A stretch of DNA of 64,000 nt, taken from contig CM102286.1 in the NCBI GenBank assembly GCA_046563655.1, forward strand, positions 8,804,001-8,868,000. The letters run 5' to 3'. Position numbers and translations under genes: made by a program. Under the pieces are notes generated by a model. That model had not been told where the DNA came from. It saw only the letters and a list, made by a program, of their open reading frames with translations, and searched no databases. Positions 30,792 to 64,000 of the stretch are shown piece after piece (positions within the stretch are counted from its first letter, which is position 1; every line of letters begins with the position of its first letter). Source of the stretch: Yuukianura sp. NJ FZ-2021 (taxonomy: Eukaryota).

Positions 30792-31023
30792 CGACTTTCT
30801 TGCCCAGTTAAGGTAATGGAACAACAGGTAATGTAGGGTACGGTTTTTTTTCTTTTTCGTTATAATAGTAATTATCATTGCGCGACATACAAAACCAAAA
30901 CCACAAGCACCCAAACCCTTAAGGCGACATGTTGCCCAATACATCGGCAATACGTTTAGCGTTTATATATTATTTCACGTTAGGGAACTAGCAAATACAA
31001 TCCCAACACACGTAATGTTGGCT

Positions 31024-36086: not shown

Positions 36087-36169
36087 CCACTACAATGACA
36101 ATCAACTCAATTTGTATTATATCGCCATCCCTACATTTAAAAGATTCTTACCCGACATCGCTCTTTGTT

Positions 36170-36420
36170 TTAAAAATGGGTAAAAATGGTCTTTTGAAGG
36201 TATGTGGTTATGTCGTAGAACGCCCACATGAAATTATGCTAAATACCGGAGCGGGAGTAAGCTTAGTCAATTCCACTTTAGTTAATTCTAACTATATTCA
36301 GCCGCCAGATCATACAATAATGTTGCAAGATTTTGCTCTAGAAGTACTTTTGGGAACCGATTTTCTTCGGAATCAACGTGGCATAATCGATTTCGACCGT
36401 TTAGCTAGTAATTGGGAAGG
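36170..36420 (+). pseudogene. Degenerate retropepsin (aspartic protease) remnant
   Basis: IMLNTGAGVSLV (catalytic DTGA appears as NTGA) and VLLGTDFL, unusually close together. No RT or IN motifs follow. Confidence 0.65.
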
Positions 36421-44700: not shown

Positions 44701-45493
44701 AGCTTGTCCATCGTTTGTTCGGAAAGTAAAAGAGCAAATACAAACGATTAGAACCAGGTACCAACGATTATGATAGAACGATCTGCACCTGGGTCAATCC
44801 CGTTCCGGTAGGGATACACCTCGACGTAAACGTTTGGTTTAAGTGAAGAACGTAGCTTCCAAGTCTCGTCACGTCAGATCAATTTGTTTCCCAAAGTCCG
44901 ATCAGGTATGGCTCCGTCAATCCAATTCAAATTAAAGATTCTCGATTAGTTAAGATCAATCTTAAAATCAGTCGGAAAGATATCACCTTAATCAATCCCA
45001 CTCCGGCAGGGATACGCCTCGATGTAAACAGTTGTTTTATGTGATGATCGATCCACTTCCTTCAATTAGCAGGTTCCAGTATCCCGTGTCAAGGTTAAAG
45101 CCACAAGTAGTCCGGCCAGGGTCACCAAAATGTTGAATAAACGAGCCAATTTCAACTTAGGCACAGATCAACTACCCGTTGATCAGTGGCTATCAAATCC
45201 CGGACACTTTAACCCTCGACTAATGAAAACTGGAAAGTCTGAACTGATCTTTGATTTGTTTATGTTTATTTAACCTTTAAATCAATGCCAAATTAATCAA
45301 ATCTTTAAATTCCTAATCAGAGCCAATTCCTTACTTCTTATCGGATCTCTTCCAAGTACTTACTACTAAAATTCCCTCTTTTTCCACTAGCAGTCGAAAA
45401 GGAAACGACGCTATCCCTTTTCAAATATATTTAGCGCCGTTTTCTCAAATTTCCCAAAAAACCAGAATTTAAAAAATAGCCATATTTCTAACA
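38728..45493 (-). mobile_element. Full-length BEL/Pao LTR retrotransposon
   Basis: 363-bp LTRs at 38728-39090 and 45131-45493, differing only by two homopolymer indels by eye. TSD ATTAG at 38723-38727 and 45494-45498. PBS TGGTGACCC on the minus strand next to the 5' LTR. Confidence 0.97.
39414..44711 (-). CDS. pol: BEL/Pao Gag-Pol polyprotein (1765 aa, uninterrupted)
   Basis: Pao-type Gag with three Cys/His knuckles, protease LIDCGSQRS, RT DIRKAF...YVDN, RNase H FGDAS, integrase HHCC and D..D..E (GIDLTGP, TDNGTNF, WERLV). Confidence 0.97.
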   Translation of the reverse strand: MDKLKKERRHLRSAVTKLVNSLNLELEKEKKDNSQLETILAVLEGQFIKLNEADDTVKSMMLDSDSTTDEMLDEELTHTQEYQLKVSAVRVRVNAIFYPQSHHSSVHDPSENCSTTHRQKTIKYPKIELAKFGGDLKDWLGWWGQFEKIHLDEDLDESDKFTYLIQSMEKGSRAEELIKGYPQSKKNYQKAIEALKNRFGKTKLLQQYYVREVISMILLRVREKVTLSSLYDRLISHLRSLESLNLSVEAMEVVLFPMVESSLPEEILVAWQRSPNFGVDGSVLTPPKTEMDFLMDFLRLEIENEEHRKLARSGFESADKKKESRKVKSTDESFPTAAGLFSGNSKPSCVFCDKSHSSKDCYAALKMTKNERSDKLKKKGACFVCLKPGHMSKSCKANIKCPLCTKRHELLQCPQNPRNSQKDEQKKTDVTTQSNLNCTNEVILQTMMVRLVNPSSQQTKTVRVLIDCGSQRSYLLKKTALDLNLKPIDTLSINHQLFGGTEVRNVPHFVYDFQVQSVHGSFCLNVKVMDHESLCGSLPRVTKGPWMGELKRLGIFVNDLNERNPTEIEFLIGADILGDILTGKIQRLQNGLTATETQLGWAVMGEIDRRKVSNELIMSVFSMTVSNSTVSQLWSLDTLGIRDPVEKMSKEQHEQEALEHFQKTVSRDQIGRYSVRLPWISQTPVLPSNREVAMKRLENTTRKLMSNGKYSDYEKVFNDWEAEGIISVVKDEADGGNTRCHFLPHRAVYKNSVTTPVRPVFDASCKVGRHPSLNECLEKGPNLLDLIPSILLRFRMGKIGIIADIRKAFLMIEVHPEDREFIRFLWWDDVERKNVKVYRHNRVVFGMNCSPFLLGAVIFHHLNQHHSENPSVVSQIIKSLYVDNLVLAVDTLTEFEIVKEVSTSILSTAKMELRQWERSGSCEDQCVTNVLGLKWDKDEDCLFCDVIPTEIPTKITKRVILSSLQKVFDPLGLWSPVLIVPRILMQQAWIEDKNWDDEVTPNIVNEFVNWSVELSQVMDKVILRRDVSGEKINDFDNYQLHIFGDASKKAYATVVYLRVETREGVKVHLLQAKSRVAPIKGASIPRLELLACTISARLAMSVKTALNLDNVPCYFWSDSTTALSWIKRSNEWGTFVGNRVKEICQLTQSSQWHHIPGIHNPADLPSRGITPTKFVESRWWEGPGWLRLRKELWPLAEEPTDEEAVDQERKRGISTLNVTADFRPWYVVKNNYSSNLRVLAFIFRFLNNTRKIGQRENSIRPTAEELDCVERRFIKIVQLESFSTQKSVIEGLRVEKDTDEIIRVKTKITNRQDSDLFRRPILLPNFHPFVTLIIRETHELNSHGGTQLMMAKLREKFWIVQSRRAIKKVIRKCVRCTRFDGRKGETRICPLPEPRVRDAKAFEVTGIDLTGPLTLKNQTKVYIVLFTCAVYRAIHLELVESLSTEDFILSFIRFIKRKQRPTIVYTDNGTNFVGAVNLFKGINWESVEKKTQVHRVKWVFNPPSAPWWGGWWERLVRSVKDLLRRMLGFAKLTYVQLETALCEVESAVNHRPLTYVTEDQDDFVSITPAMFLHDLPESEVPEASTVKVSSLHDKKRQLGKLLAELKEAFRSDYLGQLVQRGNEKKIRQFEVGEIVIVELDKVKKILWPMAKIVELIPGNDGEIRVAKVRTKTGILTRPIQRLVPLEVRRDELPVEEADPEKVGDVREPIGDKKTVGDARKPTGKQKRKHETTIDYVKEEADDIQVEVPVVTKSGRTVKKPERFGN

Positions 45494-46451
45494 ATTAGTC
45501 AACGGTGGATACAATTGACACTACTGTCAAATGCTCTGTTCACATCTTCGCTCACCCGACACATAACGATGGCATACGACCAACTTTCTGAACCCAAACT
45601 CTCAAATTCGTCTCACATACAAAGGCCCCGAAGCAGTTTCCCAAACCACAATCCTTCCACATACCCCTCGTCATATCAAGTGGAAGGAACCTTCCCCCAG
45701 AATTTAACTGAGCAAAGTAGCAACGGGTATATCAAGAACTAGAACCGCTGCTCAGTCGTGATCTGCGGATCCATCCAACGACCAATTTCTTCATCCAATT
45801 TCTTTTAAGAACGGCCTGCTCTATCCTTGTTCTAACTATCCACAATCAACCGCTCAACAAATATACAAAATACAGAATCCACAAAGCATACTTAAAAATG
45901 GGTTTGGACACTTCTGGGTACCCTAATGATAACCGAGAAATCCATCAAAAGTAAACAAACAGTTTTCGAAAAGTAAAACACACACACATAGCTCTAATTT
46001 AGTGTAGATTTATTTCCAATCCTTGAGTTTTTTTTTTCATGTTTCACCATACTTTGCTTTTCTTCATTACCTTATACAATGTTTTTTCTCTGTTCCGTTT
46101 AAGTAATACACTGTAAGTTCTAACACTTACTCTATTTTTTCCCCTTTAATTTGTACATTCTCCATACAATATAATATAACATCGTTTGACAGTGGTATGC
46201 ATGTGCTTACAACTTTTTAAAGTTTTTCTTTCTATATTAGGAATCTATTACTAGCTATGTAGTAACATACATATACTGTAATCCAACACTATATTGACAT
46301 ACATATTATTTGAATGTTGTACGAATTAGGCTAATAGCAAGTAGTCAAAAACCCATAAAAATATCAAAATGTTAGAATATTGAGCTATGACTTTTGTAAA
46401 CAGACTCTGTTCAAATTCCTTGATAGGAATTTCGCCGTGACCTGGGGAGTA

Positions 46452-46881
46452 TGTGAGTAACCCCTCCGGGCGGGATTCCTCACTTCGTCTCCAAGCAGAG
46501 GTGTGACGGCACTCGGGATGAGGCTAAGATCTCAGTCATGTCCCGATGGTCAGTCAGTGAGTGGTGAGCGCTTGGTCGAGGAGGAACTATCTTCCAGATA
46601 GTTCCTCTTCCGACCGAGAGTCACGGCGGAGTCCAGTCACTGGAATAGGGGATTCTAGAGACAATAAAGCAGCGTAGCCACACTTTGCCTTCGTCTACGG
46701 CTTTCCTTGTGACAGCATTCAGCCATATTCCTCAGCCACGATTCTTAGAGCTGGCACCCAGGACCTGCGCCACTTCGGTGGTGTTCGGACCTGGGCACAG
46801 AGGTCGCCGAACCAGTGGACCGCCGACCAAGCGGCGACGTGTGTGACCCATGTCCAGGTTCACCCTGGCTGGGAGGTCACA
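46452..46881 (+). repeat. 3' LTR of the 16.5-kb element
   Basis: Direct repeat of 30342-30771, preceded by purine-rich GGGGAGTA. Confidence 0.95.
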
Positions 46882-47172
46882 CCTTTGACCCGCAACTGTA
46901 GACCACTGCGCCCCAGAAACAATCCCACTAATCAGCAACCCCAGCAGCTGGCTAGTTATAGCCAAGCTGTTCAACGTCCCTTCCCTAACGTTGATTCAAG
47001 ACCACTACAAACCAGCCCACATCAGCCGCAGTCATTTCAAAATCCACAAACTGGACCACCAGCTCAGGAAAACCAATGGGTTCCTTCGATGATGTCTGCT
47101 TTCTCTACAATGACGGATCTTCTTACAAACATCGCATCCGCCGTACTTCCCAAACCTCCGGAAAACCAATAG
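46882..47172 (+). pseudogene. gag: Ty3/Gypsy gag, 3' part
   Basis: Removing 30342-46886 restores the frame: ...SQGIDP-LTRNCRPLRPRNN...PPENQ*. Confidence 0.85.
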
Positions 47173-49694
47173 AGCTGCCGTTGCAGGGACGTCACCTTCT
47201 ATTACCACCCAATCCAGTCTCTCAAATTAAGGTACAAGCCCCACCCAGGGTTTGTCCAACACGTCCCAAATTCCGAAAAATCAAACAACCTAGATTTCAT
47301 ACACACAAGAATTGTTCAGCTTTTGGCAGGAAGCACAATTCTAAAATTCCAATTATCCCAGAAGAGTTTCTTTCCAAAATACTAGCTCTTTTTGATTACC
47401 ACCGAACTTGTCCTAAATCTAACCCCCAGCCTACTTCACCTTTGGTCGTTGGGGAGGTTACTACAACATTCCCAAACTTTTGTTCTGACGCTGCAATTCC
47501 TACAGTCCCTACTTCTCTTCGTAACTCCGCCGCTACTGATCCTACTTCCCTTCTGAGACCTACAACTATAACTACAACCGCCGCTACTACTACTTCTGTT
47601 CTTCCCCCTACTCAACCTACTGCTGCAGTACCAAAGTTTGCTTCTGTTTGTGTTGGCCCTTCTGAACCTTGCCCTTCTGAATTTGTGTGTGGCCCTACTC
47701 AACTAAACCCATTAGCCGTTTCTCTCACTTCCAGATTTGGTATTAGCCCCTCCAATGTAAGCCGCGTCGCTGACTGGGTAAATTATTCCGCTCCTGAACT
47801 CTCAGCTGCAAATTCCAATTTTCCGGATCCCACTACTTTTGATTTTGACTCCCCACCCAAGTCCCCAAGCCATGATTCCGAGTTTCCTTCGGGAATCTCA
47901 GCTGCAGTTCATTTCTGGAATTGACTCCACCCCCCACTCCACTTTCCATACCGATGTTGTCTTTGGTTCTACGACTCTTCGAGTCCTGTGTGATACAGGT
48001 GCTTCTCTTTGTTGTGTCCACCCTGATTTTCTAAGGAGGTTCTCCAATATTGTTTCCCAAGCGGTTGATGTTCAACCTGTTCGTGTCAAACTTTCTTTTG
48101 GTTCTTACGTTCGTTGTGGTTCCCCCCAAACTACAATGATTACTTTCTCAATTGCTGGCGTCTCCTTCCAATACCCATTTTACATTTTCCAGCACCTTTC
48201 AAATGAGATCGTTTTGGGCTCAGATTTCCTCCGTTCCCAACATTTTCTTTTGGATCCCGCGAATGAGCGCCTTGTAAAGCGTGAACTGCCGTACACAGAC
48301 CTCAGAAATGAGTATGTTTGTATTCCAAAATCCCAAGTCCCTGTCCTTAACAAATTAACTTTGTCAGAAACTGAAGAAGTTTCTGATAGCCCCAGTATTC
48401 CAAAGTCTTCGGAAGCAGAACCAGAGTCGATCCCTCCTAAATGTACGGCCATTCCCAAAACCCCAAATACTACCTAGCTATTGACATGGCTCTGAATTCA
48501 TCTCAGTCCCCAGATACTTCAAATTCCCCTTCACTACTTGACTCCGAAGCGTCCTTCGTGAGCAATTCGAATTTATCTCAAAATTCTACTCCCCCTCCGT
48601 GCCTGAGACTGGCCAGGTCAATCGTCATCAACCCAAGAACAATGAAGCGAGTCAGTATAAAAACTGATTTACCTTTCACAGGTGACATTTTGGTTTCCCC
48701 TCGTCGTGAACTCCAACACGCAAAGCATATTGCCATTGGGAATTCCATTTCTACGCTTAAAGATGGCTGTGGAGTTACGTTCCTGTGGAATTTGAGTGAC
48801 CGCCCTGTGAAACTTCTTCAAAACGTCTCTATTGGCCCCTTCGAACCCTTCGCAGAGTTTTCAGTACTCTGTGACCTTGATGAACTCGACCATGTTAGCT
48901 CTAAATCCTCCCAATCTTCCCTCCCAGCGCACGAGATCCTAGGACTTTCGGTTAATGATGACGCTGAAATAGCAACACGGAAACTGCAAAAGAGGATCGA
49001 GGCGTTCCAGATTTCAAATACCCTAACCCCTGAACAGCGCCAAATCATGCAAGATTTTCTTGTAGCGAATTTGGATGTTTTCAATTTTGCTCCTGCTACC
49101 CTTGGGCGTACTCCCTTAACCACCCACAAAATCGACACAGGTTCTGCTAAACCGATTGCTTCCCATCCCCACGGAACTGGATTTAGGGAGGGAGCGGAGG
49201 GAAATTCAAAACCAAGTCGAGCATCTTTTAAATCTCAATGCTATTACTCCGAGCGATAGCCCTTGGTGTTCCCCAGTCCTTCTGGTCAAAAAGCCCGACG
49301 AAAGTTGGCGGTTTTGTGTTGACTTTCGTAAGGTCAACGCAGTGACTCGGAAAGATTCTTACCCCCTCCCCCGAATTGATGATACCCTCGACAGACTTAA
49401 TGGCGCCAAGTATTTTTCCTCCATGGATTGTGATCAAGCGTATTACCAGGTTGAGGTAGAGCCTGAGGACCGAGAAAAGACCAGTTTTGTTACCCCCGAC
49501 GGACAATATGAGTTCGTTGTAATGCCCTTTGGTCTAACAAACGCTCCAGCGACGTGGTAACGCCTAATTGACAATGTCTTAGGTCGTTTAAAGTGGTCCA
49601 TAGCACTCGTTTATTTAGACGATGTGGTTTGCTACTCCCGAACTTTTGAAGAGCATTTGGATCACTTAGCCTAAATTTTTTGCGCCCTTAGACG
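47160..49694 (+). pseudogene. pol: Ty3/Gypsy pol (protease plus N-terminal RT), frameshifted and truncated by the Polinton
   Basis: Protease LCDTGAS...VLGSDFL. RT SPWCSPVLLVKK..WRFCVDFRKVN..YPLPRIDD..MPFGLTNAPAT, then YLDD beyond an in-frame stop at 49558-49560. Confidence 0.92.
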
Positions 49695-49760
49695 AGTGAT
49701 GAGTGAGGTGAGCCACTTCTACCCCCGTATTTCTCAAATTGCCCCAGGTCAACATGCGCA

Positions 49761-49903
49761 AAAGGACAATTACGGTTGCGCGGTATTACTGTATTTCCGG
49801 TGGTACGGTGACACTTTATTCACGGTTGCGGTGACCTGAAAGGACAATTACGGTTGCGCGGTATTACAGTATTTCCGGTGGTACGACGACACGTTATTCA
49901 CGG
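49761..49903 (+). repeat. Subterminal direct repeat (two copies, 78-bp period) in the presumed left TIR
   Basis: AAAGGACAATTACGGTTGCGCGGTATTAC.GTATTTCCGGTGGTACG..GACAC.TTATTCACGG at 49761 and 49839. Confidence 0.9.
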
Positions 49904-50230
49904 GTTCACGGTATATATTCAATCATTGCTCTACGGTTTTTATCCCGTTTTGAGATACTTCATCATCTCCAGTTTCGCGATACGTACGACTCTGGAGAAT
50001 TTTCTTTGGTTAAGTGCAATCAAGCTAGGTGAAGAATTTACGTCACAAACAATATATGTGAAAAGAAGCACTATGCGCTATGTTCATTTAAAAAGTGTAC
50101 ATTGTAATTCCCTTAAATATGAATGAGTGCTAAAACGAAAAAGAAAGAATTAGGTAGCTATTATCAAATCCTAACTAAAACCTGCAGTATCTATCGAGAA
50201 GCTGAACTAGACACATCGTTGAAAACAACC

Positions 50231-50710
50231 ATGAGGCAAAAGTACGTGTTCCATCACGAACATTATTATAATACTTTGAGGGACCAAATTGGGCATGGTA
50301 TCCCTGTATTTCATGGTGTGCGTCAGAGAGGAGGAGGCATTGGTTCTATCTTGGGGGGTTTGGCAAAATATGCTTTACCAATCATTATGAAGTGGATCAT
50401 CCCGCACGCACGACAAGCGGCGGCTAAAACTGTAAGTGAAGTTACTGGTGGAACTCATTCAGTTAAAAGTGCTCTCAAGAAAAACAGCATTGGCTTCCTC
50501 AAAGACGTCGGTACCGACTTGCTGAATTCTGCAATTAGGGGTCAAACCGGGAAAGGGGTTCGTTCTAAAGCGAAAAAGACTTATACCAAAAAGAAACCCC
50601 GAAAACAAAGTAAGAAGGTTAAAACGAAATCCGTTGCGAAGAAAAGGAAGGCTTCGTCATCTTCAAAAAAAAGTACATCCAAGAGATCAAAGCTTGACAT
50701 ATTTGCATAA
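50231..50710 (+). CDS. Polinton putative core protein with QxGxG motifs and a Lys-rich C-terminus
   Basis: QIGHGIPVFHG..QRGGGIGSILGGL resembles a conserved Polinton ORF. An alternative in-frame ATG lies at 50123. Confidence 0.7.
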   Translation: MRQKYVFHHEHYYNTLRDQIGHGIPVFHGVRQRGGGIGSILGGLAKYALPIIMKWIIPHARQAAAKTVSEVTGGTHSVKSALKKNSIGFLKDVGTDLLNSAIRGQTGKGVRSKAKKTYTKKKPRKQSKKVKTKSVAKKRKASSSSKKSTSKRSKLDIFA

Positions 50711-52008
50711 TGTCACTCCTTCACTCAAGGTCTAAGCCAGCGATTCGGGGTGAAGTTGATTTGTTTTCGATCCCCGCAACAGATACTACCTGCGATTATA
50801 GCATGTATGAAGAATATCAACCTGTAGTGAACGTTCAAGACTCTTCTAACAAAATTGAGTTTAAGATTCCCGGGAATGGGAATCATTATTTGGATTTAGC
50901 AGATAGTTTCTTGCGGATCAAGCTGAAGGTAGCTCAGAAGAACGGATCACCATTGGGGACAGACTCGACCGTTGGAACAGTTAACTTGTTCATGCATGCA
51001 CTATTTTCTCAGCTTGATATTTACTGCAATGAAAAACTGGTATCCACTAGCAACAATGGGTATTCTTACAGAGCATACATCGAAACGTTATTGTGCTATG
51101 GGAAAGATTATAAGAGCTCTCAAGGCGGATGTGCCCTTTATTACGAAGATACGAATGGTGGAATTGCGGATTCATCAAATACTGGATGGGAAAAACGGAA
51201 ATCTTACATCAGTGAGTCCAAAACCGTAGAGTTAATTGACAAACTCAGGTTTAATCTGGCAAACCAACATCGTTACATTCTGAATGACGTCAACGTAAGA
51301 ATTTGCCTGACAAGATCTTCAGATTCGTTTGCACTTTTCTCAAAGACGAAAGGCGAGGAAGGTACAATCAAGCTCCTGTCAGCAACTTATTATATTCGTA
51401 AGCAAGTTCCATTCCCGAGCATAATTCTGGCACACCAAAGGCTCCTAGAAAAGGGGGAGATAGCCCAATACCCATTTAAAGCAACAGAAATGAAGTACTT
51501 CACTATCGCACAAGGAAATTCGTCAGCATTGGAGGAGAATCTGTTTGCGAACACTGTGCCCAGTCGCATTGTGATTGGATTTGTAGACAGTTTAGCCTTT
51601 AACGGAGACGTCAATTCAAATCCTTTTCGGTTCCATCATTTTCACATCAAAACGATTTCCATATCTGTCAACAACGTTTCAATACCAATACGTCCCTTGA
51701 CACTAGATTTTGCAACAGATGATTGTCTTTTGGCGTACTACCTACTTTTCACGAGCACAGGGATTGCAGGTCAAGACGTTGGACTATCATTTGGGCGTGA
51801 GGAGTATAAAGAAAACAACGCACTCTTTACATTCGACATTCAGCAACCCACGGGAAATGAATCATTGCTTCACTTAGAAAAATCTGGAAACGTAAAAGTT
51901 GAAGTTCAATTTGGCGTAGCGTTGGAGAAGTCAGTTCATTGTATCGTCCTATCTGAACATCAAGGGGTTCTGGAAATCGATAAGTTCAGACAAGCAGCTG
52001 TGCAATGA
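50710..52008 (+). CDS. Polinton major capsid protein (double jelly-roll; PY)
   Basis: 432 aa with EVDLFSIP, IEFKIPG..YLDLADSFL, HALFSQLDI, NGYSYRAYIETLL, PSRIVIGFV and NPFRFHHF, as in Polinton MCPs. Confidence 0.88.
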   Translation: MSLLHSRSKPAIRGEVDLFSIPATDTTCDYSMYEEYQPVVNVQDSSNKIEFKIPGNGNHYLDLADSFLRIKLKVAQKNGSPLGTDSTVGTVNLFMHALFSQLDIYCNEKLVSTSNNGYSYRAYIETLLCYGKDYKSSQGGCALYYEDTNGGIADSSNTGWEKRKSYISESKTVELIDKLRFNLANQHRYILNDVNVRICLTRSSDSFALFSKTKGEEGTIKLLSATYYIRKQVPFPSIILAHQRLLEKGEIAQYPFKATEMKYFTIAQGNSSALEENLFANTVPSRIVIGFVDSLAFNGDVNSNPFRFHHFHIKTISISVNNVSIPIRPLTLDFATDDCLLAYYLLFTSTGIAGQDVGLSFGREEYKENNALFTFDIQQPTGNESLLHLEKSGNVKVEVQFGVALEKSVHCIVLSEHQGVLEIDKFRQAAVQ

Positions 52009-52568
52009 ATACCACAGAAATCCGGAATATTCTTAGAAGAGGCAGCAAAAACTCATACCAGACGGCGGTACTACCCTCCGACAAGTTAAATGCAGTCACT
52101 TCAGACCAATTTGCAATTGTGGCAAACTCTCAAACATCTAAAGAGCCAGGCATGCACTGGATAAGTATGTTTAAAAAACGAGGAAGTAATGAGGTAGAGT
52201 TTTTCGATAGTTGTGCCATGCCAATTGAATTTTACAACACTAGTTTTGTCAGTTTTCTTTTTTCAAAGAGCAATGTCATCAGAATGAGTAAATTTAGGGT
52301 ACAACCTGAGCATAGCAACGCTTGTGGGCAATTTTCATTGTATTATCTCTTTCACAGGATTAGTGGGGAGTCGTTTGAAACAATTCTGAGTAAATTTGAC
52401 GAAATTGACTTAGTTAAAAACGACACTCTTGTTAGAAACTATTTATATGCTAACTTTGGGTACGATAACTCATTCAACATCGAGAGTGGTAGCAACCACG
52501 ATATCCGTACTGAGGTGCAGGAAATTGTGCAGTGTTGTGAAATTCTGGAAGTTCTTCTTTGCTTGTAA
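52005..52568 (+). CDS. Adenain-like cysteine protease
   Basis: Catalytic H-D-C arrangement: GMHW...EFFDS...Q..SNACGQF. Confidence 0.92.
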   Translation: MNTTEIRNILRRGSKNSYQTAVLPSDKLNAVTSDQFAIVANSQTSKEPGMHWISMFKKRGSNEVEFFDSCAMPIEFYNTSFVSFLFSKSNVIRMSKFRVQPEHSNACGQFSLYYLFHRISGESFETILSKFDEIDLVKNDTLVRNYLYANFGYDNSFNIESGSNHDIRTEVQEIVQCCEILEVLLCL

Positions 52569-52670
52569 GTGGGTAATAATTACAAATGTAATATTAATAA
52601 TAAACTTATGATTCACTAATGTTTGAAATATATGTTAATTAATAAATATTTCAAAATTTTATTGAAGACA

Positions 52671-53590
52671 ATGAAATCCAGCGTTGCAAAACAGTATAAA
52701 CGCATAGGAAGAATCGGTTATTTGGGCAGCAAAAGAGTTCTGAGTAAGTTGTGCGGAATTCCAGAATCCGAAGCTTTGAAGTTCATGCAGTCACAAGACT
52801 CATACACTCGTCACAAAAGTCGTAGATGCAAGTTCCGTAGGAGGCGAGTGATTTCACCTGGACTAAACTACCTATGGCAAGCAGACATTGTCTTCTTGCC
52901 AAAGTATACTGACGAGAACGATGGATATTCGTGTCTTCTGACTGCGATAGATGTCTTATCCAAATTCGGATTTGCTGTTCCCATGAGGTCCAAAAAAACC
53001 TGTGAAGTCATTCAAGCATTTAAAAAATTCTGTCGTCTGGAAGACGGCCAACAACACTCGAGTGTGACCAAGGTGGTGAATTTTGGTCGGCAGCTTTCAA
53101 GAAATGGGCCAAGTCACAGGGAATACTAATGTATCATAACTTCTCAGACTTTGGCTCATCTGTCGTGGAAAGATTTAACAGAACAATTTGTACTGCCATT
53201 TCTAAGCATCTGACACAAACCGGAGAGAAAAGATACATTGAAGCACTACCTTTACTATTGAAGACATACAATAGCAGGGTGCATTCTCGTACGAATCACG
53301 CCCCAAGCAATGTCGATAAATATAACGAAATGGACGTATGGCTGGAATGCTACAAGGATTTGTATATGAACCCAAAGCGCAAGCCTTCTTTAAAATTGTA
53401 CGACAGAGTCCGTTTAGATAAAACAAAGAAGATATTTGAGAAAGGTTATTGGCCAGCATTTACAACCGAAGTTTTCGAAATTGCTGAAGTTATAAATTCC
53501 ATTCCTGTGACGTACCGTGTCAAAGACCTGAATGGTGATCTAATTTCTGGTATCTATTACAGTCAAGAACTCAGCAAGATAAAGAACTAG
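52671..53590 (+). pseudogene. Polinton retroviral-type DDE integrase with a single frameshift (A run at 53022-53027)
   Basis: WQAD and IDVLSK lie in the first frame. Adding one A gives KILSSGRRPTTLECDQGGEF, continuous with VVERFNRT...FEKGY. Confidence 0.9.
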
Positions 53591-53598
53591 TTAACGAC

Positions 53599-54357
53599 AT
53601 GGCCTTCTACGCTACACTTCCGTCAAACGGCTCACGTTATTTCGCTGATAACCGAACGGCAAACTATAGGATAAAACTTCCATCAAAAGTGAAACTTGAA
53701 CCCTCGTCATACGAAGTTGGGCTCACCGAATTAACCTATATTTGTTCAATAAAAACTATAACAGGAATTGAACAAGATAACGTAATTAGGTTTACTGGAG
53801 TTAATAGAGCTGGAAAAATAGAGCTTCCAACATTTCATTATGTTGGTGTTGAGGATATAGTTCAGACAGTGAATAGGTTCTTCCGAAAACACGAAGTGCC
53901 TTGTAACCTAAAATATTATGCAGTAAAATGTCGTATTAGTTTGGAGGTTGGTGGTGGATATTCTATTGAGCTGAGCGACAAACTTTCTGATATTTTGGGT
54001 TTTAATGGGGAAACCGAATTTAACTCTAACCTACCGGAAGGATCATCGTCAGCTTATTACATAGCACCATTCAGACCCGATTTGCTTGGAGGGAGGTACC
54101 ACATGTTTATTTATTGTGACATAATCGAATCTCAAATCGTCGGTTCTTCGTTTGTTCCTCTTCTACGTATGGTTAATATCATTGGAAACGAGGGACAAGC
54201 AGTAACTCAAACTTTTGCACATCCGTTCTACCTACCAGTTTCTCGAACAGAATTCGACATCATCTCAATTCTCTTGTGCGACGAATTTGGCGAGGAGTTA
54301 CCGATCGACAAAGGTCAGGTCACATTGACCCTTCATTTCAGAAAAGTATCCACCTAA
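53599..54357 (+). CDS. Polinton minor capsid/penton protein (PX)
   Basis: FYATLPSN...YEVGLTEL and FIYCDIIESQIVG....LLRMV...TLHFRK signatures. Confidence 0.85.
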   Translation: MAFYATLPSNGSRYFADNRTANYRIKLPSKVKLEPSSYEVGLTELTYICSIKTITGIEQDNVIRFTGVNRAGKIELPTFHYVGVEDIVQTVNRFFRKHEVPCNLKYYAVKCRISLEVGGGYSIELSDKLSDILGFNGETEFNSNLPEGSSSAYYIAPFRPDLLGGRYHMFIYCDIIESQIVGSSFVPLLRMVNIIGNEGQAVTQTFAHPFYLPVSRTEFDIISILLCDEFGEELPIDKGQVTLTLHFRKVST

Positions 54358-55077
54358 TGGAAAAGGACACGTATGAGTTCAACACCATTCAATTGCGTCA
54401 CCCGTTTACATACATTGTTGCTGGTGGGACGATGTCGGGGAAAACAACGTTTGTCTGCAAATTAATTGAAAACCTGGATCTTATGGTTACGCCAAGAATT
54501 GATGACGTAATCGTTTTTTATAAAGTATATCAAAGTGGATATGACGTAATGAAGTCATCCAACTCAAGAGTCAGCTGCATACAAGGTTTGAAGTTGGATG
54601 AAGTCTATGCACCGAATACGTTACTTATCATTGACGACCAGATGGCAGATTCACTAAAGGATAAGGCAGTTCAAGAACTTTTTACTTGTGGTGTTCACCA
54701 TAGGTAATTACACATTGTTCATTGTAAATTATCATAAGAATTTCGTCGTTCACACATTACTTTGGAATTTCAGGTCAATATCCGTTATATTCTTGTCGCA
54801 AAATCTGCTGCCTCAGGGGAAATATGCGAGGGATATTCGTTTGAATACACATTACATGACGATTTGCAAAACTCCCTCCTTCCCTTCGCAAGTGATGTAC
54901 CTGAGTAGACAACTTAATCCAAGAAAGCCTAGTGCGATTTTAACAGCATATGAAGAGGCAACTCGGAAGCCTTATTCCTACTTGTTTTTAAACTTGCATC
55001 CAAGCTGTCACGATAATTTACGAATTCAGTCAGGGATTTTTCCTACGGAAGAGCACATTGTTTACGTGCCAAGTTAA
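54357..55077 (+). CDS. DNA-packaging ATPase (A32/FtsK-HerA-like), 2 exons: 54357-54703, 54774-55077 (216 aa)
   Basis: Walker A GGTMSGKT and Walker B LLIIDD. Removing the 70-nt GT-AG intron 54704-54773 restores HHRSISVIFLSQN. Confidence 0.9.
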
Positions 55078-55088
55078 AGTACTTCAGA

Positions 55089-55436
55089 ATGACAAAGCGG
55101 TTAGTAAGGAACAGAACGTTTCTGGAAGAGGTGAAGAAGTGTAAACCGTCTAAGCGTAGAAATTTAATAAAAAAAGCTACAAAAGACAACATTGACGCCC
55201 TTTCTGAAGTCGCACTAAATACACTGCTTGGGAACGTTCCATTGAACAGGGCACATAAGAAAAAACTTCGACGACACAAGGTCAGCATCCGAAATCTAGC
55301 AAAAAAGTTTTCAATTAAAAAGAAAAAAGATTTCCTGATACAAAAAGGTGGGTTTCTACCTTTGCTGGTTACGCCTGCTTTATCTATACTTGGTGGTCTC
55401 GCAGCGAACGCCCTGAGTCATATCGTTGGTTTGTGA
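55089..55436 (+). CDS. Small basic protein with a QKGGFLPLL hydrophobic tail (reminiscent of adenovirus pX)
   Basis: Lys/Arg-rich body followed by GG-FLPLLVTPALSILGGL. Confidence 0.75.
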   Translation: MTKRLVRNRTFLEEVKKCKPSKRRNLIKKATKDNIDALSEVALNTLLGNVPLNRAHKKKLRRHKVSIRNLAKKFSIKKKKDFLIQKGGFLPLLVTPALSILGGLAANALSHIVGL

Positions 55437-56281
55437 TGTCTAAGAAAATGAAGCTAATACCACATTTAGAGTACGAAAAACTCATTGCATTACAACGGGC
55501 GCCTCAACTTTTACACAAATCGGCCGCTGTCCAACTCATACACCGAAAACACGCTGCTGCCACAAATATTCTAAAATGGAATTCGGTTTCAGACGACATC
55601 AAACTAGCTTTGTTCAATAGCATGGTAAAAGGTTTACATGAAAATATTTCGGCCTTGTCGAACATTCCACTTCGCGTCGAATCTGAAAAATTAACTAGCG
55701 AACCACAAAAACCGGTAGAAATACCTAAAAACGATGCTGAAACAACAGTAGACCAGTTACTGTACAACTGTCATCTTGCCAAATTTCTACCAAAAAAGTA
55801 CCAGGAAGTTGCTTTAAAAATCATGCAAATTCTTTCGAGTTCTGCATTCAACGACATATCCTGGGATGAAGCTGGTCAGGTTTCATATAAAGGTGTGCCC
55901 AGAAGCGGAGCAAACATCATTGAGTTGCTGACATATGTTCTTAAACCTCCGGCAAAAGTGACTCCTCCTAAAGGAATTAGAACATTTATTTATATTTTGA
56001 AGAAGGTGCACATTCCAAAGGAATTACTAGGAATTCACATTCGCAGCAAGCTGAATTTGAGCACTGTCACGTTACTCTCGCAGAGGACGCCGATGGTTGG
56101 TCAAACGGTTTTGGCAGAAGAGGAAAATGAAGATGAAGAGGAGGAGGAGGAGGAAGACGATGAGGGCAATGACCTGGAAAACGATATTAGTGATGACGTA
56201 GACGATGATGAAAGGGTTTCGGAACCGGAGGACTATCGAACTCCAGGTATAAAACCTTCGAAGTGGAGCATATTCAATTAG
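55436..56281 (+). CDS. Conserved Polinton hypothetical protein with an acidic tail
   Basis: Long ORF in a tightly packed gene run. It has an ISWDEAGQV...GANIIELL...PKG segment and an E/D-rich C-terminus. Confidence 0.7.
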   Translation: MSKKMKLIPHLEYEKLIALQRAPQLLHKSAAVQLIHRKHAAATNILKWNSVSDDIKLALFNSMVKGLHENISALSNIPLRVESEKLTSEPQKPVEIPKNDAETTVDQLLYNCHLAKFLPKKYQEVALKIMQILSSSAFNDISWDEAGQVSYKGVPRSGANIIELLTYVLKPPAKVTPPKGIRTFIYILKKVHIPKELLGIHIRSKLNLSTVTLLSQRTPMVGQTVLAEEENEDEEEEEEEDDEGNDLENDISDDVDDDERVSEPEDYRTPGIKPSKWSIFN

Positions 56282-56308
56282 TCTCATGTTAAACTCGAAA
56301 GAAGAACA

Positions 56309-57002
56309 ATGGCTGAAAGTGAAGACGAGTGTGAAATCATTGCCATGCCAGTGCTAGTGCAAACAAACGGTGGACCATATTTTAAAGACTTCTCAGACCT
56401 TGAAGTGCGATTAGCGACATATAACTCGTTTCTTCGAGACGGATTGCCTCCTTTTCAAAATATGGCAAAAGCAGGGTTTTTCTACACGGATTTTGCAGAT
56501 GCTGTGATTTGCTTCTATTGCGGATTATGCTTGACCTCTTGGTCACCACTTGATTCGCCATGGCTCGAACATCGAATTCACTCTCCGAATTGCGCCTACT
56601 TAAATTTGCATCATCCGGTCACAAATGTAATAGCATATTGTATATTACAGTTTTTAAATTTGTCTAATGAGTGTAAAATAACTGGTTATTCATTATTGAA
56701 ATCTTCTTTTAGATGCCTACGGAGGCTGAGTCAGTCGATACTAACATTCAGCAAAATATTGAAGCCGGTAAGAAGATATCTAAAAAGTCATTTGTTGATC
56801 CGATTAAAAAATTCAATAACATTTTACAGAGCTAAACAACCTCAAGGCCTTGGTACAGTGTAAGATTTGCATGACCCGCCAAGTATCCTACATGTTTGCT
56901 CCTTGCTGCCACATGGTAACGTGTCTCGAATGCTGCACTACCCAGTCAATATGTCCACTATGCCGCACAGAAGTTCGGCTTATTTTGAAAGTCTTTTTAT
57001 AA
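56309..57002 (+). CDS. Inhibitor-of-apoptosis-like protein (BIR + RING), 3 exons: 56309-56626, 56713-56767, 56830-57002 (181 aa)
   Basis: BIR: RLATY...MAKAGFFY...CFYC...W....PWLEH....PNC. RING: CKICM...FAPCCHMVTCLEC.....CPLCR...KVFL*. Both GT-AG introns preserve the frame. Confidence 0.9.
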
Positions 57003-57048
57003 TGAATGTAAGGTACATTATTACAAGTTAAACATAAAGGTTTAGGTT

Positions 57049-60000
57049 TTATTTTCTCAATAAGTAGTGACCGTACGGCATTGTTGAAATTCCGTCTTCT
57101 AGTATATATCGTTTTGAATCAAAACCATGTAATGCAGCCTTTTTCGTTTTGATATTGTAAACTTTATGTTTAAAGGAACGCATTGAGTTTGTTGAGCAGC
57201 ATAGCATCTTTTGCTTAAATAAAACTTTCTTTAACATTTCAAATGATATTGAGTTTTGTTGTATTCTTTGCGGTACTCCTTTCATTGCTGTCTTCTTAAA
57301 CACGGATTCATCATAATCTTCACCTTCAAAGCAATACGACTTCGGGGCAAGTCCAACAAACTTTGTAAGAATTTTGCCTTTAACTTCGTCTTTCATTTTT
57401 CCTGTAACACCAGCGTTTTTCGTGGAATAATTAGGATGTGAAGTCGGTAAGTTGCTGGTGTCGAACAAGTGAAGATCATTTTCAATATCCTTGTAAATAT
57501 CAGCAGTGCTAATCAAGTATGATAAGCTGTCCGTATCAGTCATCAGTAGTGTTGCATTTTCACCCCATTTTTCTTTCACATAGTCGTAATGGAAACGTGC
57601 CATATGAAGTTTGCTTAACTCTAGCACGGAAAATCCGGTGTAGATTGCCTTGTTTAGTGTAACAACTGATTTCTGCATTCGGAAGCAAGCCAGGTTTGAT
57701 CCCAAAATGTCATGTGACAGAAATTGACACTTGGATATTAACTTGGAAGCAGTTTTTCTGTCGTTCACAACTTTAACGTTCATGCGCTTTCGTACGGATT
57801 CCATCCCTTTCCCGAAGACCGCGTTAACACATAGTTTGAAGAACATTCTCTGGAAATCATTTTTGGCCATACGGCGCTGAGTGCTGTTGAACTCGACGTA
57901 AGACTTGAGCCAAGCCATTTGCCTAAATGCAAGTATTCTGGAAATTTTGTCGATCACCAAACCCTTCTGGACGTAAAATTTTAGATTTGCAACATGGCAA
58001 ATGTAGTTTTTACGAGGGTAAAAGTGACACACCAACTTATCTTGTGCCTCCATGTAGTTGATTGGGAGTTGCTCAAGCATTTTCTTTTGGACACGACTAA
58101 AATGGCGCGAGTTTACCGAAGTCTTCTCACATGCCAATGGATAGCACTTGTGTTTATTGTGCAACTCCGCTAACATATTTTTGAGGTTAAAATATATTCA
58201 TTAACCGCAAATAAATATTTATAACAACATGTACCTGGATAAGATAGATCTACTTCCAGAATATATCCAATCTCATCATCAGGATCAACGTCGTCAATTT
58301 TGAAGTTGCTGATAAGTTCTGTGGAAAAAAAATGTAGTAGAAATGGAAAAGTAGAAAAAACATTTGAATTATAAAATTTTTAATATAAAGAAAAATACCT
58401 TTGTTTAAGAAAACAAATCTGTCTACGGGTAGTTTGCTTTCCATCGCTTTCCCATATAGGTTTACCATGTCCCATAACACGATATACAGTTGATTTATAT
58501 TTCTCTCGTCACCAGTATAGTTTTTCATGTATTTGTTCTTCGCCTCTGCGTACCGATGAGATATTTGTGAAACGCCACCTAATAATTATAACCAGCAGTT
58601 TATCACAAAAGCTAAGTTGAAGAATGATTATTAGTAAATACAAATTTTATACCTCTCATTCCTTTCTCAAGGAATGTGTACATGTCGATATCGGTGAGAA
58701 GCTCCAATTTCACACCTGAAAGCTTCAACGCCGCGTCCCATGCGAGACCAGGCAAGGAGAAATAATGGACCGGATCAAGCTTGAAGTTCCGTAACGCCAT
58801 AGTCCGGAATTCTTCAAATACACAAGCCAAAAGTAGTGCGTCCGTTAACAAGTACAGATCATGGTACTCCCCAAGTGATGTCAGTCCAAAGCTTTCAAAA
58901 ACTTGTTTAGCATATACGTAGTCGGAGGTTGTAATGTGACTGTTTGTAAGCGTGTTGAAAAATTTCGATTGTGTTGGCAGAGACGGTTCATCAAATCGTT
59001 CCCAGGAGTCGATGTAATCATAAGGGTACACACCTTTTCTTGTTAGGAATTCAAATTTACTTCCGAAGACTTCCTGGAGCAATCGAAATCCAGTATTTCC
59101 ATTTTCTTTTAAGTTTGCGGTAAGTTCACTCAACGAACAATTCATGAACTGAAGGCTGTCAATGAACTTCAAAGACTCAATTGTAACCGACATGTACTTC
59201 TCCGTATTTGTAGGTATAACTTTTATATTCTTCGCACGAACATTGTTGAGTCCTTTTATTATGAGGTGGTGATCGTAGCCACTGAAGTTGTGCATCTGCA
59301 AAAAACATAACAAAGCTTATAAGTTAAAGCAAAAAGTGTTCATGAATATATGATAAATGTATGATCCTCTGACCACTACTGGAAGAATTTCCTTGTGTTG
59401 AAATTGTAGATTACAGCTATCATGTGCAGCCCCACGAAAAACACCTAATAAAAATAATTTGTATCAAACTACATTTAAGGAAACATGAATCTAATTTTTT
59501 CTGGCTTTCTTACCTGTGAGGTGATCATGGTCACGACATTTTGTCCTCCCATTTGCACCGTCAAACTCTCCACCACAAATATGACAATTTGTGCTGCTGT
59601 GAAACATCGCTTCATCGTTCTCTGTCATTTTCATAGGAACATTAATTTTGTACAGTTCCAAGACATTTTTTGCAATATGCAAAAGATCCTCAAGGAAAAT
59701 TTCAATGGCGTCCTTGCCACGATAAACGCGGTATGTCACTAACTCGCCGGTATGTTTCACCAATGCATACGCAAACCCAGTGGGAACATGTCGTTTCTCT
59801 TTGGTTATGGTGGTGCTGCTTAATGACGGACTGAGACGCTTTAGTAATGATTCAAGGTCGGCATAGACAACATATCCGGCCTTCATCTGGTTTGAAACGT
59901 TTTCAAAGCTGACTTCTGGTGGACATTCACTGCCTGACTTGGGCATTTTTATTTTCTGAAACGTGAACATTTCACAGTCAAGTCTGTGTTTATGTAACAG

Positions 60001-61230
60001 ACATTTCCCATCACAATTGATTGTTTCACATGATTTCTGACACTTTTTAATCCTCTGTAGACAATTGAAGCATAATACGCGTCGTTTACAGTTTCTTTTC
60101 CCGAGTAATCTATTTATGTTCCGAATTCCAACAAAGTGCCAGGAATCCGTTTTTTCGTTGCACAGGAGAATTAAATTCGCGGTTTGAGCACTTACATAAT
60201 TTTTTTCAGAAATTCGAATTGGAACAATCCCCTCAAAAGAGCATGACTCAAACACATTCACCGCAACATTATTCATTTCTTCAAACTTGGAAATTTCTGT
60301 CAATGAAACTGGGTACTTTACACAATCGAAGTCGTGTAGGTGTTCAAACTGTTTGTACGACGAGGCGCGGGAAGTTTCCTTTGCAGCACGGTATAATGAG
60401 CTTAATATAGCCCACTTAAAACAGTAGTTTCCTCTAGCTTTGATATTGACAGTTGATCTTTTTGCCTGTAGAAATTTGGGAAGCTTTTTCCAAGCGCCAC
60501 CGGAGAAGGCTTGAAATCTGCCGATTCGAATATCCGCTCCGCATATTTTAGACAATTGCCACCCGGAACCATACACCTCAAAAATGCTAATGGAGTGTTC
60601 AATTTTAGAGATGCAATGCTTCAAAAATCGTCGCAAACTGTCTTGGTTGTTTAAAACATTCAACATATTAGAGTTCACCATTTTAGTCTGGTACTCATAA
60701 ATATCACTTCCGTCTTTTGAGGAACACAAATAACGCTTGAACTCCACTTTCACAGATAATTGGCATTTAATGGCTTTTAACGAAATGAGACAATCCTTGA
60801 TAATGTTTTGTATTGGAGTTTGACACTTGTAAAAATACAAGTTGAGATTACTCACTCCATTTTTAAGGCGATGACGATAGGTACGGACATAACCACGGAA
60901 GGCTTGAATTTTCTTAAATGGAAGGATTTCCAATCTCGTATTACCGCGAACATTCGAACCACCAATTTGGACTTGCTTTTTAATGAGTTTCGCAATGTGG
61001 TTGTGCACAATTTTTGAATGGACAACAGCGGAGTGATTTTCAAGAAGGAGATGTGATTGAAATATTTTGTTGCATATAACACATCGATGAACTCGTGGTG
61101 TCTTTCTTCTATTACAGTTTCTTGCACATTTTCTGCGACAGTTAGAAACATGCCGAAGGTAGTCAAGTTTCCGGTTTTCACGCTTCCCGCAAACTTCGCA
61201 AATATTAGATTTTGGCTTGATATTTTCCAT
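57049..61230 (-). CDS. polB: Protein-primed family-B DNA polymerase, 6 exons (61230-59514, 59444-59374, 59295-58653, 58578-58399, 58318-58235, 58169-57049; 1271 aa)
   Basis: Exonuclease motifs YADLES, HNFSGYD and KGVYPYDY. Polymerase motifs DMVNLYG, KLCVNAVFGK and TDTDS. All five GT-AG junctions are phase-compatible. Confidence 0.95.
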
Positions 61231-61948
61231 TTGCTCCTAAAAAATATTTTACTTGTTTGATTAAATAATACCTTTGCTCCCTCTCCTGTATTCATTGATC
61301 AATTTTAAATGAAAATAATTACAACAGATGGCGCTTGTGGTTAGATTTTTCAAAAACAAATGAAATAAAAAACAAGCTACAATCTTCAAAAATCAATTCC
61401 AAAATTTGAACAGACTCAGTTAATCCTGAAACTTGGGAATTGAATTGAAAACTTGGAAACTAGAAATTGAATTTCTTACAGATGACAAGTCTTCTTTTTC
61501 TAATTTAAGTAATTCTTCCGTAGAAAAAAAATCAATTTTCAAAATTTTAGATTTTTCTTCGATTGAACTTTGACAATTCTGGTTTTGAAAACTTCTTCTA
61601 GCGATTGAAATTTCTTCTCACTCTCATCTCTTGTTACTGCTGATGTGGCTTTAAAGAAGGTTGAAAGCCGTCTAAAAATGCTACGTCATTAGTTTTTCAT
61701 TTCATTTCAAAAAAATAATTTCCAAAAAATGAATCCAAGGACTAACTAGTATCTCTAAAATCAATTAGTATGCATTTTCACACGATTTGAAGGACTTTAA
61801 AGGACTTTTGGTTGCCGGAGACAATGCTAAAATTAAACGTAGTTTTAAGAATCAGTAAGTGTCTGAAAGCGGAAGAGCAAACATCTAATTTCAAAAAGGT
61901 TGCAATTGAAAAACGTTCATCACTTCGGTTTTGACCACGACTTCCAGC

Positions 61949-63598
61949 ATGAGTCAAAAGTTACGAAAAGGTAAGAAACCTACCTTCTTAAGTTTAGAAA
62001 GTTTATATTCTCAAAATATTTTTCAAAAAAAGTTCGTATTAACATATTTGAATAGACGTGGTGTTAATGTACGCTTGAATTATTGTTTAATCTTTTAGCA
62101 AACACAGTTGACCTTGAAGAAAAGGAAATTCCGGTAACGGATTTGACGAGTGAAGCAGAAGGAATGAGCGAAACGCAGGCAACACTTGTAGTTTCAAAGA
62201 AAATTGGCTTATCAAGAAGCCAGCAATATAAGGAAGCTGTAATTGACGCCATGAACAAATCTACTAAGGCCGCAGCCGTGGAGGTAATTTCCAAATTGAT
62301 TCCAATTGAAGTATGTATGACTTGTAGTAATACAATATTAACTCTAGTCTGATCCGGAATTTGATCCCGACGAGGAAGAGGAAGAGTCAGAGGAAGAAGA
62401 GGAAGAAGAGGAAGAGGAGAACGTCGACGACGACAGCAGTCAACATGATGCTGAGGTCAAAGTTTCAAAACTTGAAAAACAAATGAAAATCGGAAAAAAA
62501 CCAGCTTTTGTGAAGGTAAGTCACAGCTATTTCGAAACGACATAGCCTAACCTAATTAAGTTTCTCATATATTTTCCGGCTTTCAGAACTTGGCCACTGC
62601 ATTCAACGTCGTCGCTCCTTCAAAAGCAACTGGACGGAACCGACATTGCAATCTTTCTAAAAGTGTTGCTGGAACATCGAGAGCTGCTTCAAGTTCTGAA
62701 TTATCGATGGTATAAAGCGTTTAACTTTTTTAACGATAACCATAATGATAATGATCAAAATATTGACCTTGCTTAGGTGACTTATGGCCAGGGTTGCAAA
62801 AAATATTTACTAAAAACCAGCGAAATATTTAAATAAATGCAATATTTACTGAAAAAGCTGGAAATATTTACTAGCTTAACATTACGGGCATGGGGAAATA
62901 AATAAATATTTCGTAACAAAAATGCTCGAAATATTGATTTTGTTAACATTACAGGCATGGGAAGTAAATATTTTTTGCAACCCTGCTTATGGCGTTGAAC
63001 CGACTAACCAACAGAAGAGAAAAGTGGCTACGCAATCCAAAGGAGCTTCAAAGGCATCCACTGCTAAAAGAGTTCCAAAAATTGTAAGTAGATTACGGAC
63101 TTATGGGTCAGCCGATTATTTTCTATTTTAGGTAATGTCAATATTTCTTTTAATCAGGCAACGTCCCAAAGATGTCCGTCTGACGAATCGGATGATTCTT
63201 TCGATTCACCAATCGAAGTCGAAGAGGAAACGAAGCGCAGCGGAAGACGATGTAAATATATTAATTATGGTTATCATATTTCAGCAACTTTCTCTATTTT
63301 AGGTAAAGATATCAACTAATTTTCATGTATAAATTTACAGGAATTGGTGCTGGATTTTGCGCCGAGCGAGCACGGTTCGGAATCTTACAAGAAAATGCGT
63401 GAGGGGGATGTTCATATTGGACTTGGTGTTCATGTGAAATGGCATCGCTTCAAAGGGACGGATTACATTATGGTGAGACACTTTAGCAAGGGCGTTCCGG
63501 ATGGCAGACGAGGGATCAATATTGAAACTAAATATCTCCCAAATCTCAAGAAAGCAGTTGATACCGCTTATAAATGTTATTTGGAAGCCCAATCTTAA
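61949..63598 (+). pseudogene. Multi-exon gene with an acidic/basic low-complexity body and a C-terminal PC4-like ssDNA-binding domain, disrupted by a MITE
   Basis: In-frame GT-AG junctions at 61971-62098, 62284-62347, 62516-62586 and 62710-62776. The last exon has VKWHRFKGTDYIMVRHF...RRGINI. The junctions between 63084 and 63340 are ambiguous. Confidence 0.6.
62789..62985. mobile_element. hAT-type MITE (197 bp)
   Basis: Perfect 23-bp TIR CAGGGTTGCAAAAAATATTTACT and 8-bp TSD CTTATGGC (62781-62788, 62986-62993). Confidence 0.93.
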
Positions 63599-64000
63599 GT
63601 CCATCATACTTGCATTCTTGAGCGGAGCTTTTTGAATTAGAAGTTCATCCTACCAATTGTAAAAATTAATAGCAAATCTACGTTATTAACAGTTGGAAAA
63701 ATAAATTGGAACATTAAATTCGGTAATAAGATGAAATGATGTACACAACGAATTTATTCTATTTCTGTTTTGAAGAACTAATATCCGTCTTAGTTGCATT
63801 TTCACTGCAAGAGGAAAGAATACGCTGTCTTTCTTGCATATTTTTTTTGTCTCTTTTTTGATCTCTTTCAAAGCGACGGCGATGGCGAATTCGATTTTGA
63901 GTTTTGTCAGGCTTTTTCTAAAAAAAAAAGAAAAGTAAATAGATAGAAGATGCACTTGTCTACAGTTAGGTTTGCATAAGGGTGTGGCTAACATACTATT

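Follow-up and report, generated by a model that had tools for sequence, protein, structure and literature searches.

Is the spliced gene that lies between positions 56309 and 57002 of this Yuukianura sp. NJ FZ-2021 sequence truly an inhibitor-of-apoptosis (IAP) gene, and does it belong to the Polinton around it? By the window we mean the whole stretch of DNA analysed, 64,000 nucleotides long. A first-pass annotation made from the letters alone had proposed that a BIR exon, a 55-nt linker exon and an IAP-type RING exon form one gene carried inside a Polinton, 27 bp from a Polinton ORF and 46 bp from the convergent polymerase, pPolB. This anatomy and its coordinates agree with Pfam, with PDB and with the sequence itself, and both gaps are confirmed. 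The predicted gene is laid out as follows.

56309..56626, + strand: IAP exon 1, with the ATG, a conserved N-terminal stretch and a single BIR (106 codons, end phase 0)
56627..56712, + strand: intron 1, 86 nt, GT..AG, phase 0 (AAT/GTAATA ... TTTTAG/), with a pyrimidine tract at the acceptor
56713..56767, + strand: IAP exon 2, an acidic linker mini-exon of 55 nt (18 codons + 1 nt)
56768..56829, + strand: intron 2, 62 nt, phase 1 (CCG/GTAAGA ... TTACAG/)
56830..57002, + strand: IAP exon 3, an IAP-type C3HC4 RING running to the C-terminus, and the stop codon

In the sequence as in its translation, the ATG at 56309 opens the BIR reading frame, 27 nt past the stop of the preceding Polinton ORF (which ends at 56281); the IAP stop falls at 57002 and the convergent minus-strand pPolB ORF ends at 57049, leaving a gap of 46 nt. 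The first-pass annotation had made its claim depend on a BIR HMM match: this match is strong (56309-56626 against Pfam BIR PF00653, E 1e-19, 71.2 bits, cut-off 22.9), as is that of the RING (56820-56999 against Pfam zf-C3HC4_3 PF13920, E 5.3e-10, 39.4 bits, cut-off 27). The BIR zinc signature C-x2-C-x16-H-x6-C can be read in the translation, and C68, C71, H88 and C95 are invariant in 8/8 family members. Searched against PDB with phmmer, the BIR exon finds 82 distinct BIR chains, with NAIP, cIAP1, ML-IAP, XIAP and DIAP1 among the best, and in a language-model atlas its neighbours are BIR clusters (score 0.96). For the RING, the top ten PDB matches are without exception IAP RINGs; those of cIAP1, cIAP2, XIAP and ML-IAP (E 5e-11 to 1e-9) match over residues 5-60 and align to the last residue. 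The resemblance of the locus to a BIR + RING gene is thus far beyond chance.

The genes around this locus are those of a Polinton, and most can be assigned a place in its gene set, several on matches that fall below the profile cut-offs. L001 to L006 denote the related loci described further below.

50698..52008, + strand: candidate major capsid protein, double jelly-roll type (Atlas clusters; 81% amino acid identity to L004)
51984..52568, + strand: putative adenain-like cysteine protease (Peptidase_C5 E 1.5e-3, below cut-off; L004 homologue E 2e-3)
52620..53590, + strand: rve integrase in a broken frame (overlapping ORFs 52620-53129 and 53024-53590)
54177..55077, + strand: putative FtsK/A32-type packaging ATPase (Pox_A32 E 4.7e-4, below cut-off), with a 70-nt intron
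55017-55436, + strand: ORF55017, with homologues at 53-76% amino acid identity in L001-L006 and no Pfam family
55319..56281, + strand: ORF55319, a stop-to-stop frame with an acidic tail, with homologues at 26-54% amino acid identity in L001-L006 and no Pfam family
57049..61236, - strand: pPolB, a putative multi-exon family B polymerase (DNA_pol_B_2, PHROG 1907, motifs)

The candidate capsid protein has no match in Pfam; in the atlas it lies nearest to F54H12.2-like clusters (score 0.98-0.99), which hold double jelly-roll proteins from nematodes, arthropods and echinoderms and in which 14-24% of the members carry PF21738 DJR-like. The Walker A (GGTMSGKTT) and Walker B (LLIIDD) motifs of the ATPase are legible. 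Support for the candidate pPolB is weak but consistent: PF03175 DNA_pol_B_2 is matched at E 8.4e-4 (below cut-off) and phrog_1907 DNA polymerase at E 9.5e-5, and the sequence shows the exonuclease and polymerase motifs DTDS, KxY and HNFSGYD; PDB gave no match to a profile built from the C-terminal part. The long N-terminal extension of the polymerase (59491-61236, - strand) shows C2H2-like zinc-finger patterns (zf-C2H2_jaz, E 0.018, weak). In the integrase, the two pieces match rve at E 2.9e-6 and 7.6e-3 (below cut-off), and the L004 homologue is a single ORF (rve E 4e-16, above cut-off); the frame break may be genuine or may stem from an error in sequencing. A short homopolymer run lies in the overlap of the two integrase ORFs.

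How well preserved is this copy? Terminal inverted repeats of at least 25 nt were not found within 44000-64000, self-BLAST returned none, and a comparison of 61200-62200 with 23800-50800 gave nothing beyond 16-nt chance matches as terminal repeats. The left end of the Polinton may have been truncated by retrotransposon insertions, and the retroelement remains at 46995-49259 may be what truncated it. Because the integrase frame is broken, terminal repeats were not found and the surroundings are made of satellite and retrotransposons, the window copy itself may be inactive. These surroundings begin with a satellite array (1-23890; 128-bp unit, ~174 copies, 79-93% matches, GC ~0.35), followed by nested LTR retrotransposons at 30342-46881: the outer LTRs (30342-30771 and 46452-46881, 430 bp) are 99.5% identical, and within them sits a BEL/Pao element, whose own LTRs (38728-39093 and 45131-45497) are 99.2% identical and which has an uninterrupted ORF at 39414-44747 (1777 aa, Peptidase_A17 E 2e-44). 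Given what is established about the BEL/Pao family, this insertion indicates that the host is an animal. The remains at 46995-49259, between the outer LTR and the Polinton, include a gag-type aspartyl protease (E 3.7e-5). On the right-hand side of the element, 62348-63598 (+ strand) probably belongs to a host gene: one exon there is acidic and rich in Ser/Glu, and another matches PC4 (transcriptional coactivator p15) weakly (E 0.032).

Relatives of the IAP gene were sought in proteins and in contigs. Word-index protein searches with the BIR exon alone (longer or near lengths) gave no match. An exhaustive search of 1.84 billion representatives gave 6963 matches at E up to 1e-3. Nearly all of the top 150 are to proteins with several BIRs, at 31-44% identity; among these 150, a single protein lies above 44%, the single-BIR P0060 (115 aa, 52% identity), which is a singleton from a contig of 783 bp. 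Of the cellular BIRs that bear a name, those closest belong to scallop multi-BIR proteins, at 42-44%. An alignment of the BIR exon with P0060, used as query, yielded 13 proteins from 58 candidates: P0060 and P0151-P0154 are 51-54% identical to the window BIR, P0155 is 41% and P0156 38% identical. Scanning metagenome contigs with the BIR family alignment gave 14 loci, and tblastn of the window element proteins against them marks 6/14 (L001-L006) as syntenic relatives; the other eight have BIR or RING matches only. Four scans of a viral contig collection (with the BIR exon, the capsid, the BIR alignment and a pPolB alignment) found no relative, and comparison with NCBIfam gave nothing informative. 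More distant BIR/RING segments, with no Polinton neighbours, lie at L007:364-1485, L009:614-1801 and L008:10001-10213; L007 has two BIR and two RING matches, and L008 is part of a 115-kb contig.

The six syntenic loci keep the arrangement of the window. Homologues of the ATPase, ORF55017 and/or ORF55319 stand directly upstream of the BIR exon, which follows the ORF55319 homologue in 6/6, and the gene order in the relatives reads capsid (81% amino acid identity), protease, integrase, putative penton, ATPase, ORF55017, ORF55319, BIR exon (44-55%), RING exon (60-69%) and convergent polymerase. The first-pass annotation had named absence from sister copies among the findings fatal to its claim; the gene occupies the same position in all six, a sample that was baited with the BIR and is biased towards carriers, so that it speaks for antiquity and fixed position and not for frequency. 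The RING exon is seen in 4/6 syntenic contigs (in L001 in part), and the L002 and L006 contigs end 199 and 73 nt past the BIR match; the RING is conserved at 59-61% amino acid identity and keeps all zinc ligands, the introns around it being far less conserved. The convergent pPolB is present in L003 and L005 (66-72% amino acid identity on the two long pieces). Over long aligned stretches the DNA of the window is 65-71% identical to that of L001-L006, and two of these, L004 and L005, represent the same element seen twice (exon 1 dS 0.015).

Relatives also bear on the exon model. In the window, 64 three-exon and 4 two-exon GT-AG combinations stay in frame, so the reading frame alone does not select among them, and the choice was made on splice-signal quality and comparison with relatives. 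The best-signalled GT-AG model (56309-56626 / 56713-56767 / 56830-57002) is in frame and gives 181 aa; one two-exon alternative leaves out the mini-exon, takes the following AG in ACAGAG as its acceptor and gives 162 aa. In the window, L001, L003, L004 and L005 alike, the homologous three-exon model keeps the frame. The donor after the BIR is found at the homologous place in L001-L005 (GTAAG or GTAAA, read through as V-R or V-K), the G/GT donor that closes the mini-exon is invariant in 6/6 aligned sequences, and introns of 61-71 nt stand at the place of intron 2 in L001, L003, L004 and L005. The mini-exon varies in length (55 nt in the window and in L003, 58 in L001, 46 or 19 in L004/L005), every length being 1 mod 3, and the peptide SVDTN is common to the window and L003. 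L004 and L005 allow only 2 in-frame three-exon models and no two-exon model, and L001 allows no two-exon model from the homologous donor. Strong indirect support is thus available for the predicted three-exon model, which would place BIR and RING on one polypeptide.

Two other readings of the locus have to be weighed against a spliced, resident gene. BIR and RING might be unjoined, an unspliced message giving a BIR-only protein of ~110-180 aa and the RING being a relic or part of another transcript: the BIR frame of the window does stay open through intron 1 to 56863, which would give 184 aa from the ATG, and on the related contigs the proteins called by gene finders have the BIR alone, at 109-131 aa. 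The latter predictions arise because in L001-L005 the BIR ORF meets a stop just past the conserved donor. Against this reading, the RING is conserved with all its zinc ligands, far better than the flanking introns, the splice sites and frame-keeping mini-exon lengths are conserved, and the distant relative P0156 has BIR, acidic linker and RING within one ORF of 185 aa. Moreover, in 5/5 sequences (window, L001, L003, L004, L005) no Met precedes the RING in its frame, and because the RING exon lacks a start codon we reject separate BIR and RING genes; that the two are unjoined seems to us highly improbable, and the splicing of RING to BIR that the first-pass annotation had proposed appears sound on these signals. 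A host IAP gene or pseudogene merely flanked by Polinton pieces is scarcely credible. Such an accident could be suspected where the element is not delimited by terminal repeats and lies amid a mosaic of satellite and nested retrotransposons, but six independent contigs, at 65-71% nucleotide identity, hold the same gene between the same element genes, the intergenic gaps in the window are just 27 and 46 nt, and no cellular BIR exceeds 44% identity among the best 150 matches. It is the synteny in L001-L006 that leads us to reject a chance-placed host gene and to return to a gene resident in the element.

How old and how constrained is this resident gene? A quick maximum-likelihood tree of 172 BIR segments over 92 columns (the best BIR per protein, from 427 detected) has a single clade (SH-aLRT 95) made up of the window, L001-L004, P0060 and P0151-P0155; L006 joins this clade at SH-aLRT 82, and P0156 falls outside, its placement not resolved. 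In exon 1, L003 against L001 is the one unsaturated pair (dN 0.197, dS 1.54; dN/dS ~0.13); the window against L001 gives dN 0.38 and dS 1.66, and for most pairs dS had reached saturation or could not be computed. On this codon comparison the IAP gene is constrained where synonymous change is unsaturated. We therefore consider it likely that the three-exon IAP gene is real, resident in the Polinton, ancestral to the window and at least five other diverged lineages, and under purifying selection. Its product, of ~181 aa, would have a single BIR, joined by a short acidic linker to an IAP-type RING at the C-terminus, and the element appears to represent one Polinton/Maverick (adintovirus-like) lineage in which the IAP would be a resident accessory gene and not a host gene placed there by chance. 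A BIR+RING IAP gene carried inside the Polinton, the central proposal of the first-pass annotation, is thus supported by domains, position, synteny, splice sites and constraint.

The introns themselves had been taken as a possible sign that the gene was captured at the DNA level. Introns of similar size are also found in the core genes of the element: the ATPase intron (54704-54773, 70 nt, GT-AG, phase 2) interrupts VHH-R/SISV, and removal of a 69-nt intron from the polymerase (59513..59445) restores HLTG-VFRGAAH. The window, L001, L002 and L004 have the ATPase intron at the same site and L006 (L006:1-460) lacks it, suggesting that introns were gained or lost within the lineage. Short introns are, as far as these predicted structures tell, a trait of this element lineage, and they point to nuclear transcription and reliance on host splicing; introns have reportedly been noted before in some genes of Polintons. 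Because the ATPase and pPolB carry such introns too, those of the IAP (86 and 62 nt) are by themselves no mark of DNA-level capture, and this part of the earlier argument falls. What stands is a resemblance of phases and of the terminal RING exon to hard clam IAP genes: as described in section 8 of Song et al., 2021 (PMC7831173), the RING of these genes lies in a single terminal exon, and after the BIR part comes an exon that has a phase-0 intron on one side and a phase-1 (or 2) intron on the other. The Polinton IAP likewise has intron 1 in phase 0, intron 2 in phase 1 and a single terminal RING exon, but its BIR is held in one exon, whereas in the clam the BIR usually extends over two, according to the same section. 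The phase match, with a chance expectation of ~1 in 5, is a lead only.

What would such a gene do for the element? Following what its protein family suggests, the IAP mRNA would be transcribed in the nucleus and spliced by the host machinery, the BIR would bind host caspases and/or IAP-antagonist proteins, and the RING would dimerise, recruit an E2 and ubiquitinate the bound proteins, so that apoptosis might be delayed in the cell where the element replicates. Like the IAP RINGs that dimerise, this RING extends to the C-terminus. The anti-apoptotic function, the binding partners, the E3 activity and splicing in vivo are all inferred by analogy. The BIR residues L75, W78, D82 and E87 are invariant in 8/8 family members, and they may correspond to groove positions of XIAP BIR3 and other peptide-binding BIRs. 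A conserved regulator of cell death in a Polinton would fit a virus-like life in which the infected cell is kept alive, as opposed to that of a plain transposon.

The main rival to caspase control concerns signalling: an element-borne IAP-type E3 could mainly rewire innate immune or NF-kB/IMD-type signalling, or ubiquitinate restriction factors or proteins of the element itself. BIR+RING proteins are not all caspase controllers, and cIAP1/2 and insect DIAP2 act mainly in signalling. In keeping with such a role, the window BIR matches type I and type II structures about equally, with similar E-values (cIAP1 8e-14 and 7e-13; ML-IAP 1e-12; XIAP 1e-12 to 1e-11), and its groove may be of either class. 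The layout of a single BIR and a RING, however, and the match of the RING are those of the ML-IAP/XIAP-type apoptosis inhibitors, the four presumed groove residues are invariant, and viruses that carry IAPs use them against apoptosis. We thus regard a role in signalling rather than in caspase control as unlikely, while giving it more weight than the other rivals, and keep the delay of apoptosis as the preferred reading of function.

Among known proteins, ML-IAP/Livin (BIRC7) is close in plan, with one BIR and a RING at the very C-terminus, and its chains match the window BIR at E ~1e-12. ML-IAP, XIAP, cIAP1 and cIAP2 differ from the window protein in being cellular vertebrate proteins with longer linkers; identity is moderate, and their RINGs read PCGH where that of the Polinton family reads PCCH. 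Baculoviruses, entomopoxviruses and iridoviruses have captured cellular IAPs with a C-terminal RING and use them against host cell death; baculoviral IAPs usually have two BIRs, are intronless and belong to much larger genomes. The likeness of the window gene to the IAPs of these large insect DNA viruses, as they are generally described, would lie in the C-terminal RING, the capture from a cell and the use against cell death. Planarian Burro elements, giant Gypsy-like retrotransposons, are reported to contain BIR and BCL2-like motifs (PMC6431247, in the portion covered); these lie inside a retrotransposon polyprotein of ~4,900 aa, unlike the separate spliced BIR+RING gene of a DNA element found here.

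IAPs have been noted before in elements of the Polinton type. Section 3.2 of Starrett et al., 2021 (PMC8502044) states that homologues of Bcl2 and IAP were observed in adintoviruses, a 2024 preprint, in the portion covered, holds that most mammal-associated adintoviruses appear to encode anti-apoptotic homologues, and a 2026 leafhopper adintovirus preprint (10.64898/2026.07.28.741253) names an IAP in the figure legend of its genome maps. Polinton-type IAPs are therefore, as a class, already in print (PMC8502044), and the window gene is a better-resolved case. As appears to hold for the window, the IAP of the adintoviruses in the covered part of PMC8502044 is an accessory gene of an element that also encodes pPolB, an rve integrase, hexon, penton, adenain and an FtsK-type ATPase; the covered text of that paper and of the preprint differs in giving neither architecture, position nor exon structure, and the likeness is one of description and not of sequence. 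In the text of one supplementary file of PMC8502044, the terms IAP, BIR and apoptosis were not found. In the portions covered of the Polinton, Maverick and adintovirus literature on IAP, apoptosis and introns, a BIR+RING gene that is spliced and syntenic across a lineage of Polintons is not described.

Could this Polinton lineage be a vehicle that multiplies and spreads IAP genes in invertebrate genomes? We consider this quite improbable. If it were true, part of the 'massive IAP expansions' of bivalves would be integrated Polinton copies and not retroposed host genes, the mini-exon and RING exon of such bivalve copies would have been missed by annotation, and the lineage could bridge the exchange of IAPs between hosts and large DNA viruses. 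In the parts of PMC7831173 covered, a clade of 49 clam IAPs is described, 42 of them dispersed and mostly silent, single-exon and BIR-only, and DNA transposons are enriched around hard clam IAP genes; Mavericks account for 1.7-1.9% of the clam assemblies that PMC8905726 compares. The resemblance of the Polinton intron phases to those of clam IAP genes is a hint in this direction, as is the fact that gene callers left every relative found here with its BIR alone (109-131 aa); an identity of just 42-44% to the closest mollusc BIRs that bear a name argues against it. As a warning to annotators, ORF-based or automatic calling shrinks this gene to its BIR, and IAP counts in invertebrates may include Polinton cargo.
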